Positions 846-63,061 of a stretch of 64,000 nucleotides of DNA are shown here, piece after piece; position 1 is the first letter of the stretch, and each line of letters starts with the position of its first letter. The position numbers were made by a program, and so were the translations under genes. Under the pieces are notes generated by a model that worked only from the letters and a program-made list of their open reading frames with translations, ran no database searches and had not been told where the DNA came from. Source of the DNA: a virus (taxonomy: Duplodnaviria; Caudoviricetes); the IMG/VR virus record IMGVR_UViG_3300029288_000111, positions 1 through 64,000 of that record. One strand, 5' to 3'.

Positions 846-3800
846 TCAGTTCAACGTGGGTGCGTGCCGCGCCAGGAGGTGCTGCGCCCGGTGCTGCGCC
901 ATGACGCGCATCCGAGAGAGGAGCGCCCGCCGCCGCTGCGGGTCGCTCGTGCCGAGGAGTTCCCGCCGCATCCGCACGAAGTCGCGGCCGTGCTCGGAGA
1001 TGTGCAGTGCGTGTTCCTTCTCGGAGAACCCGCGCACGTGCTCGTCGGCCACGGGGTCGCGGAACCCCTTGGCGAGGAACACCGCGCGCACCGCCGGCCG
1101 GGTCACGAACACCGCCCGCACCGGTCGTGCCTCCGGCTCCAGGGAGTCCACCACCTGCTCCCAGACCCTCTCGAAGGCCTTCGAGAGGGTCTCTGCGCCG
1201 CCGGAGTCGTCCGTGGCCGCGTCGCTGTCACGGTGCCCAAGCTGCTTGTAGATCTCCTCGACGCGCGCCGTGAGCTGCGCCAGATCCTCCTCGTGCGCGA
1301 ACGCCTTCGCGTTCTCGGCCTTCAACTTCTCGATGTCGCTCTCGGAGTCACGAACGCGGCGTTCGGCCTTCTCCACGTCGGCGTCTCCCTGCCGCAACTG
1401 GTGCCCGATGGTCGCGAAGACGCTCTGCGAGCTCTCTCCCAGATCCGGCTGCGAAAGTTTCACCACTTCCCGACCGCTCGGGGTATGCACGAACAGCGCC
1501 GGCTCCCGACCGTCCATCCCTACCAGGAGAGAGAAGCCCGCGTAACGGCCGATCTCCCGGGGGCGATCGCCGATCTGGCCCGCATGGGTCATCAACTCCC
1601 GGTTCAGCGCCGCGGCGCCGCCGTCGTAAGTGTCGTAGCCCTGGCCTCCCACCTCGATCGCGAACTTCTCCGGCTTGTGCGCCTTGTAGGTCTGCTGGAT
1701 CTCCCGCACCGTCTCGATATGCTCGCGCTGCTGCCCGATCCGCCGCTGGTGAGAGGCGATCAGACTCTGGCCCTGCCAGCGCGCCTGCTGGTGCTGCGCC
1801 TTCAGCGCGCTCAGACGCGCCAGCTTACTCTCGACATCCACCTTCTCTTTGATGATCGGGTCGCCGGAAGCCCATGCCAGCATCTCGGCGGCCGATTGGG
1901 CGATGCCGCTGATGTCCTCCATCTCGCGCACTTGACTGGTGCCTTGCCGGATCTGCTCGATGAACTTCGCCTTCGCGAGCACCGTCTGCCACATGAACTC
2001 GTCGAACGACCCCTCGGTGACGTAACGGTGGATCTCGACCGGGATCCCCCAGTCCTTGTGCATGTTCCCCTGGCGAACGATCCTCCCCTCGCGCTGCTCC
2101 AGGTCCGCCGGCCGCCAGGGGCAGTCGAGGTGATGGAGGGCGAACAGCCGCTCCTGAACGTTCAGTCCGGACCCCGCCTTCTCCGTGGAGCCGATCAGGA
2201 TCCGCAGTTTGCCGCTGTTCATCAGCTCCGCCAGCCGGTCCTTCTTGGCATCGGTGTTGAAGTCGTGGGCGAAGGCGATCTCATCCTCGCGCACCCCCGC
2301 CGCCACCAGCTTGCGCCGCATGTCCTCATAGACGCTCGTGCGCAGCCCCTGCTCCTCGGCCGTGTCGGTATCCTCGTCGGGCTGGCTGCCATCGTCCGAC
2401 GGTTCCCTGTCCTCGCCCGGCTTTGGCGTCGAAAGGTCGAGGAAGACGATCTGCGTGCCCTGCCGATCCGTCACGCGCGGGTCGTGGTAGATCCGCGCCA
2501 CCTCGCGCACGCACCGGTTCACCTTGCCGTTGGGGTCATCCGTCGCGTCCTTGTCCACGAGACGCACGTCGAGCGATGCCTTGCGCGCATCCGAGGACAG
2601 CTTCAGCATGTTGTCCTCGGACGGGTCCGGGCGACTGCTACCCAGCCCACGAATGGCTTCCGCGCGTTTTCGGATCGACTCCATGTAGGATGAAAGAGAC
2701 TCATTGGACGCCGCCGCGTGCGCCTGATCGCGCCGCTCCGGCAGCGGTAGGTAGGGGAGATCCTTCACCAGCTTCACATCTGCGAACTTGCGATACAACT
2801 TCTGCAGTTCTGGTATGTTGACGAACTTAGCGAAGCGCAGGCGCGGCCGGTAGCCTCCTTCGGGCGACGCTTCCTGGTTGTTCACCACCTCGCCGAAGTT
2901 CGCCGCCCACGAGTCGAACCGGTCCACTCCCTTCTCCCTCAACCCTTGCAGGTCGAGATACCGGTTCATCGTGTACATCTCGGCCATCGTGTTGCTGATC
3001 GGCGTGCCGGTCGCGAAGTAGAGACCCTTCCCCCCGTACTTCTTCAGCATCCACTGCGTCTTCGCGAACAGATCCAGCGCCCGCCCCGACTCCGTTCCCC
3101 CCAGCCCCGCGATCCGGCTCATCTTCGTGGGGAAGTAGAGGTTCTTGAAGAGGTGACAGTTAGAGACCAGAACCCCGGCTGCTAGATAGTTGTGGTGCTT
3201 GTAGACTTCGAGGTTATATGTCCACGGACCCGATCCACCACGAGTTGCACATTCCGCAGCACTTCCTCGTTCGAGAACCTCAACACGGACCACCCGAGAG
3301 CGTTCAAGACCGCCGTCTTTCTGGCATCCAGGAAGCGCCACCGCTTCAGCCGGTGCGTCTTGCCGTCCACCTCGATGGTCGTCTTGCTCTTCGGTTCCGC
3401 GATGTCTACCTTGTAGCAGGGCGGGAGCGACGGAAACTGATCCTTCAGGGCCGAAGTCAAGATGGCATATTCCATCGGCAGATCGAGAGCATCGGCCAGA
3501 AGTCTCTGCGGCTCGGTCAGCGTTCCATTGCCGCCGCGGGCAAGGAAGGTCCTGCCCTGCAAGGACCGCCGCATCTTCTCCCGCGTGACCGGGTTTGCCA
3601 TCGGGTTGCGTGTCTTCATCCTGGCCGACGCTTCCGGGTTCGCCTTGCCCCGACATGCCATCTGGCGCGCCTCGGCAATCCACGAATTGAACGCTTCCGC
3701 ACGACCCGGCCGAGAGTTCCGCCACGATGCCGCACACGGGTTGCTGCAGAAGCGCCGCTTCGCGTTGTTTGTCTCCCCCGATGAGCGGAACGTGAACTCC

Positions 3801-6800
3801 TTCCCGCACCACTCGCACGTCTTGACTACCAGGTGCTGCTGAGTCCACAGAACGCCCTTGCACTTCCGGGAGCAACACTTCTGCGCTGCTCCTTGCTTCC
3901 CCCGAGACGATGGCGTGAAGGGCTGCTGGCATACGACACAGACCGGCAACATGATCCTGATCCCCCCCACGAGAGATAACGACCGAACTACCCGAGCGTT
4001 CCCGGAAAGTTGCGATCTCTTCCAGGTGATGCTGCGATGTCAGGTCGCCAGCGCACACATAGCCCTCTTCTGCCGTCCAGACCTTGTGATTGGGTGTGCA
4101 GAGGAACTCTCCCCCCTCATGGACAACCTTCACCAGCGTACCCCGAAGAGGATTCTTCAGCCAGCGAGCGATGCGCTGCCACTCCAGCCCGCCCGTCTCC
4201 AGGTTCACCGAGGCCACTCGCACATCAAGTGCCTTCTCGACAACTTCACCGATGGGGAGCCATCCTCTCTCCGTCAGTACCGGTGTCTCGTAAGGGAAGC
4301 ACTCGTCCACGATCACGCTGTCCACGCCGAGCTCGTCGAACCTCAAACTGGTATCCTGGCGGTCCTGGATCTTCTGCAGCCGCTTCTTGTGGTTCACCCG
4401 GACGCGCTCCAGCATCTTGAAGAGTTGCTTGGCCGTGCGGTCCTTCTTGTCCGGCTGCGCGTCGGGGTCTACTCCCATATCGCGCATCGTGTCCTTGATC
4501 TGCTCCACCGTCTCCCGGTACTGCGTCTCCGCCATCTCATCCGACATCGGGATCTGCCCGAAGGCGGAGTGGGTGATGACCACCGCATCCCAGTCGCCCG
4601 TAGCGATATGCGACGTCAGTTCCTTCCGCTTCCTCGGCGTCCAGTTGCGCGCCCAGACGGTGAGGATCTTCGCCCCCGGGTAAAATTGCCGGATCTCGGC
4701 ATCGGTCTTCGAGAGGAGGTGGTTCGGCACCACGATCATCGGCTTTTTCTTCAGGCCGAGGCGTCGCAGCTCCATCGCCACCCCGGCGATGATCCGGGTC
4801 TTGCCCGAGCCGACGCAGTGATCGAACAGAACGTTGCCCCCGGCGATGGCCCGCCAGATCCCATCCTTGATGTGCTTTCGCAGGCCCGTGGCGATGTGCG
4901 CGGCCATGCCGGGCAGGGTGAGGTGCGAGCCATCGAACTCCCGGTCGCGACTGTCATTGAACAGGTCATTGTAGAGGCGGACGCAGTGCTCCGCGCGGTC
5001 CTGATCCGCCCAGATCCAGCGCTTGAACTCCTCCTTCATCTTGTCCTGGAGTTCCCGCGCCGCGAAGGTCTCCTGCTGATTGACGACATCCCGCTCTTTG
5101 CCGTGATCGTCTACCTCGTGATCCTTCACTGTCACGAACTGCTGCGCGAGGCAGGCAGCGAGGATCTGGTGCGCCGGCACGCGCTGGGTGCCCCAGGTGC
5201 GCGTGTTCTCCACACCCTGCCGCAGATAGGGGTTGTCAAGCTGGACGTTCCAATCCCCCGTGCCCCTGTTGTAGGAGATGACCGGCTTCTTGTCGCCATA
5301 GCCCGCTCGCAGCAGCCCGGAGAAGAACTCCTGGTAGTACTCCACCGGGATCCAGGTCGCTCCCAAGCGCGCGCTGATCTGTGTCGGGTCCAGATCCTCC
5401 GGCTGCACCGCCTTCAGCGCCTCGACGTTCGGCGCGAACGACCCATCCTCCCGCGCCGCCGCTTCCGCCTGCCGTAGCTTCGCCCGCACCGCGCCGCTGA
5501 GGTACTCGTCGACCGGCACCCACCCCAGGCTCACCGGATCGCTCACCTGCGACGGGTCGCGGTAGACCGCCCCCTCCGCCGCCAACTCGTCGCGGATCCC
5601 TTCCGGGTCGCGCTGCAGCAGCCGACTGATATGCTTCCAGTCGATCTTCCCCCGCTCGTTCAGGCAGATCCCGAGCGCATCCACCGGGCTGGACGCCGAG
5701 GCCGCGCGCGCCGCCGGCGTGATCGTCCGCTTCGCGAAGATGTCCGCCTTCGAGATGGCACCGCCGTCGCGCTCCACCCGCTCCAGGGAGAGGACGAGGC
5801 CGGAGTCCGGGTCGTCGCGGAACGCGCGCACGTTCGCCTTCTCGTGCAGGTTGCCGAACTGGCCCACGAAGGCATCATACCGCTCGTTTAGCGTCGCCCG
5901 GAGCCCCTGGAGTTCGGAATCGGGCACGTCCTCATACTGCGCCGAGATCAACGTCTGCGCCGCCTCCCGCAGCCCGACGAGGCCCGCCAATCGCTTGCTG
6001 TCTCCCCCTGCCTCCTCCAGCCGCCCCGGCACGCTCAGGCTCTCCCGCATGTTGCGGTAGACCTTCCCGTCCTGGATGGTGAAAGCCCCCACCTTCAGCG
6101 CCTCGGGCGCGCGGATCGCTTCCTCCTGCGCCTTCTGCGCCTGCTCATAGTCCGAGCCGTCGCTCATCACGTCTTGCGGCAGCCGAGAGATCGCTTCCTT
6201 CAGCGCCTGCCCCAGGTCGCGCCCGTCACTCTTCATCCCGGTCTCGGTGGCGGCCATCTGCCCGAACCCGGAGCCGACCCCCATCACCCCGAGCATCGAC
6301 TCCGGGTGCGCGGCGAAGTACTCGTTGACCTGGATCTCTTCGCCGCCCTGCACCCTCAGCGGCGCCGTGGCGGTCCATTTCTCGATGAACCGCCCCTCGG
6401 GATCGCGCGGATGGAGCCGCTCGAACTCGGGGTCCTTCTTACGCAGGATCAGCACGTCCGTGGTAACGCGCGTGCCGGCGTTCTGGGCAAACGCATCGTT
6501 CGGGAGACGGATCGCCCCCACGAGATCCGCCTGCTCCGCCAGGTACTCGCGGAACCGCTCGTGCGTCTTGGCGTCCATCGTGTGGTGGGAGCTGATGAAG
6601 CAGACGAGGCCGCCGGGGCGCACCTTGTCGAGGCTCTTGGCGAAGAAGTAGTTGTGGATCTGCCGCGTGAGCCAACCGCGCCCGGTGCGCTGGTACTCCG
6701 CGTCGTGAACGGGGAAGTTGCCGAACGGCACGTTGGAGATCGCCAGGTCGAAGTAGTTCTCGGGGAGCGGCGTCTGCTCGAAGCCCTGGATCTGCACGTT

Positions 6801-12576: not shown

Positions 12577-13807
12577 GGAGATTGCGGCGGGAAGCCCCTG
12601 CCTTCAGGCAGGGGAGGAAAGCCGCGTCCGCTTCCAAAGCGGACAGATTCCCACCGCATCCTCCCTTCCTTGACATTCCCTTGTGCTGACACTCGCGGTG
12701 AAGCTGGCTCCCGATATGGAGCAAGCGAAAGCTCTCCTGGAAACCCTGGAGGCGTTCAACGCTGCCTGCAACTACCTGGGAGAGATAGCCTTTCGCCTGA
12801 AGACCGCGAGCAAATACAAGCTTCAGCACGAAGCGTATCAGGACGTGCGCGAACGCTTCCACTTGTCGGCGCAGATGGCGATCCGCGCTATCTCCAAAAC
12901 CTGCGAAGCCTACAAGCGCGACCGCAGCATCCAGCCGCACTTCCGCCCCCACGGCGCCATGTGCTACGACGAACGGATCATGGCCTGGAAAGCTGCCGAC
13001 CGCGTGTCGCTGCTGACGCTCTCGGGGCGCGTCGTGGTGCCCTGCCGCTACGGTGCTTATCAGGCCGCCCGTATCGAGCGCCGCCAGGGGCAGGCCGATC
13101 TGGTCTACCGCGACGGCGTGTTCTACCTGTTCGTGACCGTGGATGTGCCCGAAGCGGAACCCTTCGACCCAGAGGGCTTCCTCGGGGTAGACCTTGGGAT
13201 CGTCAACATCGCCACGGACAGCGACGGCGCTCAGCACTCCGGGGCGGTGGTGAATGGCCTGCGCCACCGGCACCGCCGCCTGCGCCAGAAACTGCAGAAG
13301 AAGGGTACGAAGTCGGCCCGCCGCCTGCTTCGCCACCGGCGCCGCAAGGAAGCCCGCTTTGCCCGCCACGTCAACCACTGCCTCAGCAAGGAGATCGTCG
13401 CCAACGCCAAAGACACAAAGCGGGCGCTCGCCCTGGAAGACCTCCAGGGCATCCGCGCCCGCTGCACGGTTCGCAAGGCTCAGCGGGCAACGTTCTCCTC
13501 GTGGTCGTTCTTCCAACTGCGCTCCTTCATCACCTATAAGGCGCAGCGCGAGGGCGTGCCCGTGGTTCTCGTGGACCCTCGCAACACCTCGCGCGAATGC
13601 CCCACCTGCGGGCACACTGATAAGCGCAACCGGCCTTCGCAGTCCGTCTTCTGCTGCACATCCTGCGGGTTCGCTGGCCCGGCGGATGTCATCGCGGCGG
13701 GCAACATCGCTCGCCGGGCCGCCGTAAACCGGCCATACGTCTCGGAGACAGCACTCGCTGCCTAGCCAGGGACAAAGCCCCCAGGCTTTAGCCGGGGGAT
13801 TGTTTAC
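12577..13807 (+). mobile_element. IS200/IS605-family TnpB-only element (IS1341-like)
   Basis: Inserted 3' of TCAC (12573-12576); left-end hairpin CCCCTGCCTTCAGGCAGGGG; right-end hairpin CCCCCAGGCTTTAGCCGGGGG, element ending TTAC; no tnpA; no target duplication. Confidence 0.85.
12683..13765 (+). CDS. tnpB: RNA-guided endonuclease TnpB
   Basis: RuvC-I GVDLG, RuvC-II LEDL, Zn finger CPTC/CTSC, RuvC-III ADVIAAGNI all intact. Confidence 0.95.
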   Translation: MLTLAVKLAPDMEQAKALLETLEAFNAACNYLGEIAFRLKTASKYKLQHEAYQDVRERFHLSAQMAIRAISKTCEAYKRDRSIQPHFRPHGAMCYDERIMAWKAADRVSLLTLSGRVVVPCRYGAYQAARIERRQGQADLVYRDGVFYLFVTVDVPEAEPFDPEGFLGVDLGIVNIATDSDGAQHSGAVVNGLRHRHRRLRQKLQKKGTKSARRLLRHRRRKEARFARHVNHCLSKEIVANAKDTKRALALEDLQGIRARCTVRKAQRATFSSWSFFQLRSFITYKAQREGVPVVLVDPRNTSRECPTCGHTDKRNRPSQSVFCCTSCGFAGPADVIAAGNIARRAAVNRPYVSETALAA

Positions 13808-60544: not shown

Positions 60545-60751
60545 CTACGCGGAGGCCTGAGATGTTCCCGCTCGGGCCTCCCGGCGTGCGGCAGCGATCT
60601 CCCGCTCGATCTCCTCGGGCGAGAGCCCGGAACGCCGTGCGTTCGCCCAGGCGCGTTCGACGATCTCCTGGAGGCCCTCCCACGCCTGTTCACGCTCCCG
60701 TGGGAGAGAGTTTGATATCACAATCTGTGATTTCAAAACATCCTCTTTCAT
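60545..60751 (-). CDS. Small helical protein resembling antitoxin C-termini
   Basis: GLSPEEIEREIAAARRE; AGGGG RBS. Confidence 0.5.
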   Translation of the reverse strand: MKEDVLKSQIVISNSLPREREQAWEGLQEIVERAWANARRSGLSPEEIEREIAAARREARAGTSQASA

Positions 60752-62181
60752 GTTCGCCCCTCGCGTTCACCGGCTCCCGACGAACACTGTACTCATACCC
60801 GTCCACCCGCTGCACGACGCGGATCTCCTTCTGGCTCCTCGGGCTGTAACTGCGCTTCGTGCCATCGGGATAGGAGACGATCCCCTTGCCCGCCCGTCGC
60901 CTCCAACCTGGAAACCCGCCCACACCGGCCCCGGAACAGCACCATATCGCCGGTGCCGAAGTGGAAGCGCCGCTTCCACCGCCTGGCCGTCATCGGCAGG
61001 CCGTCCTTCCCCAGACGGGGAAAACCGGGAGCGCGATACCGCCGCAGTCCGCGGTCTCCATGCCCCTTGGCAGTCGCGAAGAGAACCCACACCTCCCGCG
61101 CCCCTCGCTTGACCGACAGGAGCGGCGCCTCGCTCCAGGCATACGCCGAGCGACCGACACAAAGAGCATCCAGCGAATGTGTCTTCGCCAAGCGGAACTG
61201 ATCCCGAACGAAGTGCGTCATCCCGCCCGAGCCGGTTTCCAGGGGCAAGCCCATGCGCCGGATCCGGGCACAGAGATCGGTCCGCGCCGAGTTTACCGCC
61301 GCCGCGTCTTTATACGACTTACCCACCTGCGCTTGCACATCGGGGTGCCCAAACTCTACCGCCGTCCGGTTCTTCTTGGCCTGGTTGCACGGTCCGCAGG
61401 CGATGGTGAGATTGCTCACCCGATTGGTTCCGTCCCTGCCTTTCGGAATGATGTGCTCCACCTGAAGCGGCCCCGGAAACTTCTTGTTGCAGTAGGAGCA
61501 GCGGTGGTGGAACTTGTAGAGAAGATACTGCTTCAACTCGTAGCCGGCGAGGGTGCCGCGTTGATACTCCATCCCCTTGATGTCCGGCTTCTCCATCTTC
61601 TGGGTGTCGAAGCGCACCGCCTCGACCGATATTCCCGTCACCGGCGCCCACCGGCACAACCGCTCAATCCACGAAACCTGCGAAAGGACCCGCGCCTTCA
61701 CCGCCGGAGACAGCCAGCGCCCGCGCGTGTCCTCGCCGTTGTGCCGCACGCCCTTGTGGCGCCAGCACCAGTCCTTGCCACTTCTGGCGTTCTGCCCGCA
61801 GATGTGGCACTTCACGCGCGGGCGGTTCCTGAAGCGCCGGGGGCGGTAGCGGCGATACTTGTTGCGGCGCATCCGGCGCCAGTTCCGACGCTGCTGCATC
61901 TTCTTGTGAATGCCCCGGCGGTGCTCAATCTCCATCAGCGCCAGGGCGCGCGGTCGGTTCCCGCCTTCTCGGACGACGGCCAGTCCAGTTGCCTTCGATC
62001 CCGGATCCAGCTTCACCCGCACCGACTGCAACTCGCTCTCTTCCACCGTTCGGTCCGCCAACCGGATCACGAAGGGGGAGCGGCGGTGAACACGCGCCCG
62101 GCCCCTCTCCAGGAGGAGTCGCGCCCGCTTCTCCGTGCAGGGCATCAGCGGATTCTGATGTTTGTCCAGAACGTAGACCAT
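60690..62181 (-). CDS. iscB: IscB RNA-guided endonuclease, frameshifted by a 4-bp duplication at 60888-60895 (as read, ORF 60793-62181)
   Basis: PLMP domain, RuvC-I LDPGS, Arg-rich bridge helix, RuvC-II VEAVRFD, HNH (CSYC..EHIIP..NL..C..CN), RuvC-III THSLDA; typical VQRVDGYEY tail in the shifted frame. Confidence 0.93.
60711..60737. repeat. Palindrome TTTGATATCACA-ATC-TGTGATTTCAAA
   Basis: 12-bp arms with 1 mismatch; same core as 63037-63061. Confidence 0.8.
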
Positions 62182-62184
62182 CTT

Positions 62185-62539
62185 CTTGTCCTTACGGACC
62201 TTGTGACGGTGGCGGTTGGCATCCCGCCACGCTCACCACGCCCATGTCAACCGGCAGTCCGGCATTGAGCCATGTCGCGTTCCGTTTCGTGGCCTCTCAA
62301 CCATTGTCTACAAGTACCTTTCGGTACGAACGCGACTTCGAGAGGGTCAGGCTGGTGAAGCACCGACCGTCGGTTTTAGACATCCGGCCAACGTAGCTCA
62401 CGGCCCGAAGGCCGCTTCAGCGGTTGTTACTCCCGCCTCCTCATCTGCCTTGCCATCGGCATCGGTGGCTCGGGCTAGTTCGCAGTTGACAGACTTTTCA
62501 GCCCGCGCGCTTCAACTCGGAATCCGCATCGCGCAAGGA
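62185..62539 (-). ncRNA. omegaRNA/HEARO-like scaffold with 5' anti-repeat (tracrRNA-like)
   Basis: ACTAGCCCGAG, GCTACGTT, TGCTTCACCAGCC, GACATGGGCGTGGTGA and CGTCACAAGGTCCGTAAGGAC motifs upstream of iscB; 62508-62526 complementary to the repeat. Confidence 0.82.
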
Positions 62540-62912
62540 GTCGCAACGGACTCCGAATAGAAGCGGAGAGTGCGACGTTCTGGCGGGATGCACGCCCCGA
62601 AGATCCTCCGTCGCAACGGACTCCGAATAGAAGCGGAGAGTGCGACGTTTCACGCCGCCGCTCCGATCCTGACCGGGCGAGTCGCAACGGACTCCGAATA
62701 GAAGCGGAGAGTGCGACCCTCGTTTCATGCCGATACCGGCAGGTGCCGGCTGTCGCAACGGACTCCGAATAGAAGCGGAGAGTGCGACTCGGCGCTGTGA
62801 TCGTGCCGCCCCTCCTGCCGGCGTCGCAACGGACTCCGAATAGAATCGGAGAGTGCGACTCCCAACCGTTCTGGCGTCGCAACGGACTCCGAATCGGAAC
62901 GAAGAGTGCGAC
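62540..62912 (-). CRISPR. CRISPR array, 6 x 37-bp repeats GTCGCACTCTCCGCTTCTATTCGGAGTCCGTTGCGAC (minus strand)
   Basis: Repeats start at 62540, 62610, 62681, 62752 (identical), 62823 (1 change) and 62876 (degenerate); spacers 33, 34, 34, 34 and 16 nt. Confidence 0.96.
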
Positions 62913-62944
62913 TGACACTCACCGCCGTTATCCCCTTCCACCCT

Positions 62945-62974
62945 AGATAACGCTCGATGGCCGCGAGCGTTCCC
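62945..62974 (-). promoter_or_regulatory. ECF-type promoter reading into array, scaffold and iscB
   Basis: GGGAAC-gctcgcggccatcgag(16)-CGTTATC. Confidence 0.8.
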
Positions 62975-62992
62975 ACTTTTTTTCAAGGCGTT

Positions 62993-63061
62993 TTGAGATG
63001 CCGATTTGGCACCTCAAAGGTGACAATCTGTTACCTTTGAGGTCACAATCTGTGACCTCAA
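62993..63061. repeat. Three overlapping palindromes with 3-nt centres
   Basis: 62993-63017, 63011-63043 and the perfect TTGAGGTCACA-ATC-TGTGACCTCAA at 63037-63061. Confidence 0.85.

Follow-up and report, generated by a model that had tools for sequence, protein, structure and literature searches.

Architecture of the array locus

CRISPR-associated IscBs are regarded as intermediates between transposon nucleases and Cas9. A locus with the layout of such a system is found on the minus strand of the window, the stretch of 64,000 nucleotides analysed here, where a short array with worn repeats at the promoter side and intact repeats at the guide RNA side precedes an iscB gene. It raises the questions of which end of the array is the older, by what route spacers came into it, and whether a 16-nt spacer at the worn end was made as a short guide. 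The answer that we consider probable is that the locus represents a phage-borne CRISPR-associated IscB, a hybrid of transposon OMEGA and CRISPR, in which the promoter end is old and decaying and the omegaRNA end is maintained.

The window makes up the opening 64 kb of an IMG/VR virus record that is 101,092 bp long, with a CheckV completeness of 72% and a G+C content of 66%. The gene content of the phage includes an integrase, a DnaN clamp, TnpB and an ECF-like sigma factor. Along the minus strand the locus runs from a promoter through about 30 nt of unique sequence, six 37-nt repeats (R1–R6) separated by five spacers (S1–S5), an anti-repeat and a HEARO-type omegaRNA to iscB. The coordinates of the array locus and of the sigma factor gene given below refer to this strand.

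An earlier note made from the sequence had described the anatomy of the array, placing the degenerate repeats and the 16-nt spacer at the promoter side and four identical repeats at the scaffold, and this description is borne out base for base. R1 (62876-62912) is the most degenerate repeat and differs from the consensus at 4 of 37 positions (repeat positions 11, 14, 16 and 18), while R2 (62823-62859) carries one substitution, C14 to A. R3 (62752-62788), R4 (62681-62717), R5 (62610-62646) and R6 (62540-62576) are identical to one another, so that the mismatches of R1–R6 against the scaffold-side repeat read 4,1,0,0,0,0. From promoter to scaffold the spacers measure 16, 34, 34, 34 and 33 nt and correspond to S1 (62860-62875, GCCAGAACGGTTGGGA), S2 (62789-62822), S3 (62718-62751), S4 (62647-62680) and S5 (62577-62609); their G+C content is 65-76%, versus 66% for the phage genome.

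The unique sequence of about 30 nt ahead of R1, also remarked upon in the earlier note, is present at 62913-62943, its position being set by the promoter, and it has no second match within the 101-kb record. It could conceivably act as an extra guide used with R1.

As minor features of the spacers, S3 and S4 share (A/G)TGAAAC, and S4 and S5 each have a Shine-Dalgarno-like run followed by GTG (62577-62751). The idea that the spacers are look-alikes of translation starts was set aside, as a strict rule, judged by eye, fits only 2 of 6 guides.

Promoter and direction of transcription

The orientation of the array depends on a promoter at 62945-62974, which the earlier note had assumed and which is supported here by the recurrence of its motif. 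The sequence, GGGAACG-N15-CGTTATCT, is of the ECF-sigma type and recurs in the record. Its extended form, GGGAACG...CGTTATC at 62974-62946, is one of 17 copies in the 101 kb, of which 15 are located between genes and 8 precede a called gene start by 15-42 nt. A looser form, GGAAC-N15-17-CGT[TC], occurs 24 times in the record versus 6.3 ± 1.9 times in simulated sequence. A sigma factor gene with Pfam matches to Sigma70_r2 and r4_2 lies just upstream of the array promoter, at 63907-64833. Because the ECF-type motif is placed at 62974-62946, transcription is expected to begin around 62944-62940, which leaves about 30 nt ahead of R1. With a recurrent motif of this type and a sigma gene nearby, the prediction from sequence that the degenerate repeats are promoter-proximal appears well founded. 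The array, omegaRNA and iscB are predicted to be transcribed together from this promoter, in a single RNA that would comprise the unique leader of about 30 nt, the six-repeat array, the anti-repeat, the omegaRNA core and the iscB message.

Written as GGGAACG-N13-15-CGTTA[TG]C, the phage-wide motif falls into two sub-classes (CGTTATC and CGTTAGC) among its 17 copies; those within the window are at 4003, 13897, 29302, 31871, 34508, 40135, 40170, 56548, 62974 and 63934. The 17 copies probably constitute the regulon of the ECF-like sigma factor encoded at 63907-64833. Just upstream of the array promoter, at 62993-63061, two near-identical palindromes, AGGT(C/A)ACAGATTGT(G/C)ACCT, are accompanied by a third hairpin, and these elements resemble operators of a dimeric regulator. 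The -35 and -10 regions of the promoter can themselves pair as an 8-bp palindrome, with a T-run on the plus strand 5 nt beyond (62949-62981, plus strand). This element is terminator-like and would halt antisense transcription through the array.

Relationship of the repeat to the omegaRNA

The omegaRNA scaffold immediately precedes iscB, in the same orientation, and has a fold z-score of -4.35. The Rfam HEARO model aligns with its core (62226-62490) over the full length but weakly, with 25.1 bits versus a gathering score of 83 (E = 0.021). The scaffold region also aligns clearly with the region upstream of the nearest IscB homologue (L006). Between R6 and the core, positions 62476-62539 hold a linker, the anti-repeat (62526-62508), a small hairpin and the closing strand UGCGA (62484-62480). 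In the RNAfold prediction, nucleotides 12-30 of R6 pair with 62526-62508 over 19 positions, with one mismatch and two G-U pairs, and nucleotides 2-6 of R6 pair with UGCGA to give a 5-bp closing stem directly before the HEARO core, R6 thereby forming the 5' strand of the first stem of the omegaRNA. The repeat/anti-repeat duplex is predicted at -43.4 kcal/mol, versus -33.7 ± 2.9 for shuffled scaffolds, and is stronger than 199 of 200 shuffles.

The identity of the repeat was clarified by comparison with other loci. Arrays were sought in 160 IscB loci drawn from viral contigs and metagenomes and in eight contigs of the nearest homologues, and they were found directly upstream of iscB at L010, L014, L024, L073, L091 (on the same contig as L133) and L171. 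At L014, L024, L073 and L171, strong HEARO matches of 91-130 bits share their first base with the last repeat. Because the omegaRNA model begins at the repeat in these sister loci, the alignments identify the 37-nt repeat of the window as the omegaRNA's own 5' module and not a foreign element. The module takes two forms: at the window locus, L010 and L091 it contributes the 5' strand to a long first stem that the anti-repeat closes, and at L014, L024, L073 and L171 a short complete hairpin with a 5-bp closing stem. A captured type I-E array was considered for the arrays with 28-nt repeats and a period of 61 nt and was rejected, as those repeats are precisely where the HEARO model begins. Two Logan contigs, L006 and L009, begin with exactly 30 nt ending in GTTGCAAC, which would be the expected remnant of the last repeat in a k=31 assembly. 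A second, stand-alone HEARO RNA of full length (110 bits) was observed on the metagenome contig L073, upstream of its IscB-linked array (54-266 and 588-824).

The order of elements in the transcript and the position of the repeat follow from sequence, and the stem formed in cis by R6 from folding; activity of the locus we infer. Given the predicted cis pairing of R6 with the anti-repeat, the 3' portion of S5, about 16 nt long, would be the built-in guide, and R6 with S5 is in the folded model a natural single-guide RNA with putative guide activity. The spacer-repeat units further upstream would serve as guides only if cut out and paired in trans with the anti-repeat of another scaffold, in the manner of crRNA and tracrRNA. 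For the DelIscB system, how the RNA is processed to yield crRNA-like and tracrRNA-like parts is left open (PMC12660989).

The worn repeats were evaluated for the same pairing. R1 is predicted to bind the anti-repeat region at -38.3 kcal/mol versus -43.4 for the consensus, which is not above random variants with four substitutions, and R2, at -36.7 versus -43.4 kcal/mol, is worse than 98% of random single substitutions. The changes in R1 and R2 thus look like neutral decay in this pairing model.

The IscB protein

The iscB gene (60793-62181) encodes 462 amino acids as assembled, with a PLMP/RRXRR N-terminus and a RuvC domain split by HNH. Pfam matches are strong for RRXRR (5.8e-56) and HNH (6.5e-11), and the residues in the RuvC and HNH catalytic columns, D59, E187, H243, N266, H335 and D338, are invariant among relatives. 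The best relatives are 49% identical, the maximum over the protein collection searched; no close relative was found among the viral contigs searched. The relatives share a conserved C-terminal motif, VQRxDGYxY. Its counterpart in the window, VVQRVDGYEY, is out of frame with the remainder of iscB (within 60690-60900), with an apparent switch near 60890-60900. The apparent frameshift may stem from an indel of the assembly; otherwise it disrupts the domain responsible for reading the target-adjacent motif, and the nuclease may be broken.

Polarity of IscB-linked arrays

A reversed polarity, with the worn end away from the nuclease gene, is not peculiar to the window locus. Mismatches per repeat were counted against the iscB-proximal repeat and read 5' to 3', giving 4,1,0,0,0,0 for the window as above, 8,8,4,0,0 for L171, 1,1,0,0,0 for L091, 7,0,0,2,0 for L073, 1,0,0,0,0,0 for L014, 1,0 for L024 and 0,0 for L010. 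All six variable arrays, the window included, have the consensus sequence at the repeat nearest iscB and their greatest divergence at the repeat farthest from it. By FastTree phylogeny the array loci fall into about five separate IscB lineages, with the window grouping with L006 and L009 (support 0.999), L014 with L024, and the rest scattered. Given five independent cases, the chance probability of the polarity pattern is about 3%, for a rule based on six arrays of which several have just one substitution. The distal decay could reflect weaker selection and not greater age.

The arrays are small at every locus found, with 2-6 repeats, and at L091 and L171 the repeat variants are shared in blocks. 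The L171 locus (G001) belongs to a complete phage of 109.5 kb (109,530 bp) with terminal repeats, which is unrelated to the phage of the window; its five-repeat array occupies 2515-2764 and iscB begins at 3001. Cas1 is absent from this complete phage, and so are cas2 and tnpA. At the far end of the L014 array, short tandem pieces (GTCATCCCC and similar) are seen at 200-240, and these look like slippage debris of the 5' part of the repeat.

The short spacer and its overlap with S5

The 16-nt length of S1 had been noted as being close to the natural guide length of IscB. As a statement of length this holds, since DelIscB works with a 16-nt guide (PMC12660989). As an explanation of the short spacer it is weakened by L171, where a spacer of 11 nt lies between the two most degenerate repeats, the same placement as that of S1 in the window. 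Because of this shared placement, and because the substitutions in R1 and R2 are at the random level for pairing, S1 is read here as a putative product of deletion in the oldest part of the array rather than as a guide made short by design. Its length would nevertheless suffice for guiding, and the match to the IscB guide length is probably coincidental.

The first 8 nt of S1, GCCAGAAC, also form the end of S5, as the earlier note had observed. With one flanking base on each side the shared sequence extends to 10 nt (CGCCAGAACG), of which one flanking base per copy is a repeat base. An 8-mer shared anywhere among the spacers has a probability of about 0.23, and the particular arrangement in which the end of one spacer equals the start of another has a probability of about 0.001-0.002 under two nulls, for a pattern picked post hoc. 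The rarity of this arrangement could suggest that S5 and S1 derive from overlapping protospacers on one target holding the 41-nt joined sequence, in which case the S5 protospacer would be continued by GGTTGGGA. We consider this decidedly unlikely. The pattern was chosen after the event, the probability of a shared 8-mer without regard to position is unremarkable, and the match runs into repeat bases on both sides, so that a local rearrangement fits equally well. The joined sequence, which the earlier note had put forward as one contiguous target, cannot be present in IMG/VR in exact form, since the 22-mer of S5 contained within it has no match there. Neither did the array yield a significant blastn match to phage and plasmid records, nor the record a self-match.

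Searches for adaptation genes, related arrays and targets

No match to Cas1, Cas2 or Y1 TnpA was obtained in the whole 101,092-bp record. This agrees with the earlier description of the array as having no adaptation genes, although with the record 72% complete their absence from the phage is not proven. The record contains no second copy of the repeat or the scaffold outside the array and no self-target of the spacers. Searching IMG/VR with the full repeat returned no other array. The repeat with four wildcards, in which the variable positions were left free, is absent from JGI metagenomes and from 185,579 species genomes, in a search that requires exact matches at all other positions and that diverged repeats would escape. 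With the repeat absent from these genomes and metagenomes, a donor system for the array was not found. A 28-nt conserved word of the scaffold is likewise unmatched in viral or species genomes, and the repeats of L091 and L171 were found in their own contigs only. For the spacers, 22-mers of S5 and S4 are absent from IMG/VR, and when the whole array was compared with phage and plasmid records by blastn, all matches were at chance level (E of at least 0.1).

Route of spacer entry

Because the full-length spacers are uniform (33-34 nt) and all unique, an integrase of the Cas1-Cas2 type, acting as a ruler, would have built the array at some past time. The same two properties argue against simple duplication and against the stacking of transposon ends. 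Growth at the 3' end by Cas1-Cas2 of the host, as proposed in the earlier note, appears plausible by analogy. If the array were active, host Cas1-Cas2 would insert spacers in trans beside R6 and copy R6, so that the built-in guide is always the spacer acquired last. A decay gradient of the repeats that leads away from the omegaRNA in 6 of 6 variable arrays, the block-shared variants of L091 and L171 and the regular spacer lengths are all as expected from such growth, and type II-C arrays are known to be transcribed from their conserved end (PMC5524643). However, the block pattern is compatible with growth from either end, comparative or read-level signs of spacer gain are absent, the donor repeat is missing from the 185,579 species genomes and the metagenomes both as an exact and as a four-wildcard pattern, and the spacers have no significant match in the collections searched. 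We regard continuing growth as rather unlikely.

A frozen array, built once (as a captured cellular array, or by Cas1-Cas2 then present) and no longer extended while its far end drifts, is given something short of an even chance. R6 would then be kept constant because it belongs to the stem of the omegaRNA. Adaptation genes are absent both here and in the complete phage with a similar array, the substitutions in R1 and R2 look neutral, distal spacers are shortened at two loci (the window and L171), iscB is itself frameshifted, and every locus is small. What a frozen array accounts for less readily is that R3–R5 lie outside the cis stem yet are identical to R6, and that the graded series 8,8,4,0,0 is harder to obtain by selection on the last repeat alone.

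An origin that dispenses with Cas1 altogether would involve serial duplication of the 5' segment of the omegaRNA, or stacking of flank-plus-left-end units in the manner of IS200/IS605. The repeat being the omegaRNA's own 5' module is suggestive in this respect, as is the presence of a TnpB gene elsewhere in the phage, and de novo arrays arising by duplication of omegaRNA segments have been proposed as one of two possible origins, the other being insertion beside an existing array (PMC10691335). Yet simple duplication would not give spacers that are all unique and uniform in length, Y1 TnpA is absent from the record, and with stacked flanks the youngest unit would come to lie farthest out, contrary to the direction of the decay gradient. 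This origin strikes us as very improbable. Extending growth at the omegaRNA end to IscB-linked arrays as a class, with the scaffold acting as leader, the first module of the omegaRNA as template repeat and the integrases borrowed from hosts, is a speculative proposal to which we assign a low likelihood. If true, each captured spacer would at once become the nuclease's built-in guide. The reading of the locus as an array with an old promoter end and a maintained omegaRNA end accommodates either continued growth or arrest.

Comparison with known systems

The locus displays every sequence-level feature of a CRISPR-associated IscB, and by these features the system itself is of an already known kind. 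The protein has the PLMP/RRXRR N-terminus and the RuvC split by HNH, with the C-terminal motif out of frame; a HEARO-type scaffold lies upstream of iscB, though at 25 bits versus the gathering score of 83; 5' of the scaffold lies the array, with five unique spacers between its six 37-nt repeats; and a repeat/anti-repeat duplex joins array and scaffold. CRISPR-associated IscBs (Altae-Tran et al. 2021), including DelIscB and K. racemifer IscB-1 (KraIscB-1), are treated in PMC12660989, PMC11610941 and PMC10691335, according to which the association of arrays with IscB arose on several independent occasions. The window system resembles them in its small protein (462 amino acids versus 457 for DelIscB) and in its upstream non-coding RNA with spacers, repeats and anti-repeat, the guide being 5' of the scaffold. 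It differs in being phage-borne, in its predicted control by a phage sigma-factor promoter, and in an iscB that is frameshifted as assembled. What the present analysis adds is the putative promoter class, the identification of the repeat as the 5' module of the omegaRNA, and a rule holding across loci, by which the worn end faces away from iscB. Taken together, the latter two yield a testable prediction of the site of spacer entry.

Two other assignments were rejected. A type II CRISPR-Cas system would have a Cas9 with a REC lobe together with cas1 and cas2, whereas the protein here is IscB-like with 462 amino acids and Cas1 and Cas2 are unmatched in the record. An IS200/IS605 OMEGA element does not fit a locus that has no Y1 TnpA, no extra copies of the repeat or scaffold outside the array, and several guides instead of one. 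The type II-C systems of Neisseria and Flavobacterium are similar in that the worn end of the array points away from the nuclease gene. Their loci, however, encode Cas9, Cas1, Cas2 and a separate tracrRNA, whereas the window locus is without adaptation genes and has its anti-repeat fused to the last repeat.

Arrays without adaptation genes have reportedly been described in huge phages (by Al-Shayeb in 2020) and, as mini-arrays, in archaeal viruses (by Medvedeva in 2019), and these are said to be presumed reliant on host enzymes and aimed at competitors. The window array is like them a short array on a virus without cas1 or cas2. Theirs are host-type repeats, often with host effectors, whereas here the repeat belongs to the RNA of the phage's own effector and has no host repeat match in the genomes searched. 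With the window and L171, two unrelated phages with IscB arrays but without integrase genes for them add to the impression that phages make use of minimal guided nucleases.

A parallel in a different family is offered by TranC, presented as a set of TnpB/Cas12 intermediates between transposons and CRISPR (Jin et al. 2025, cited in PMC13565253). TranC is similarly a transposon nuclease with a single guide RNA functionally split into crRNA-like and tracrRNA-like parts; it differs in belonging to the TnpB family and not to IscB, and in having its guide 3' of the scaffold. The phage studied here also encodes a TnpB, at 12683-13765 on the plus strand, with Pfam matches to OrfB_IS605 and the Cas12f1-like TNB domain, and it thus carries two different transposon-type guided nucleases.
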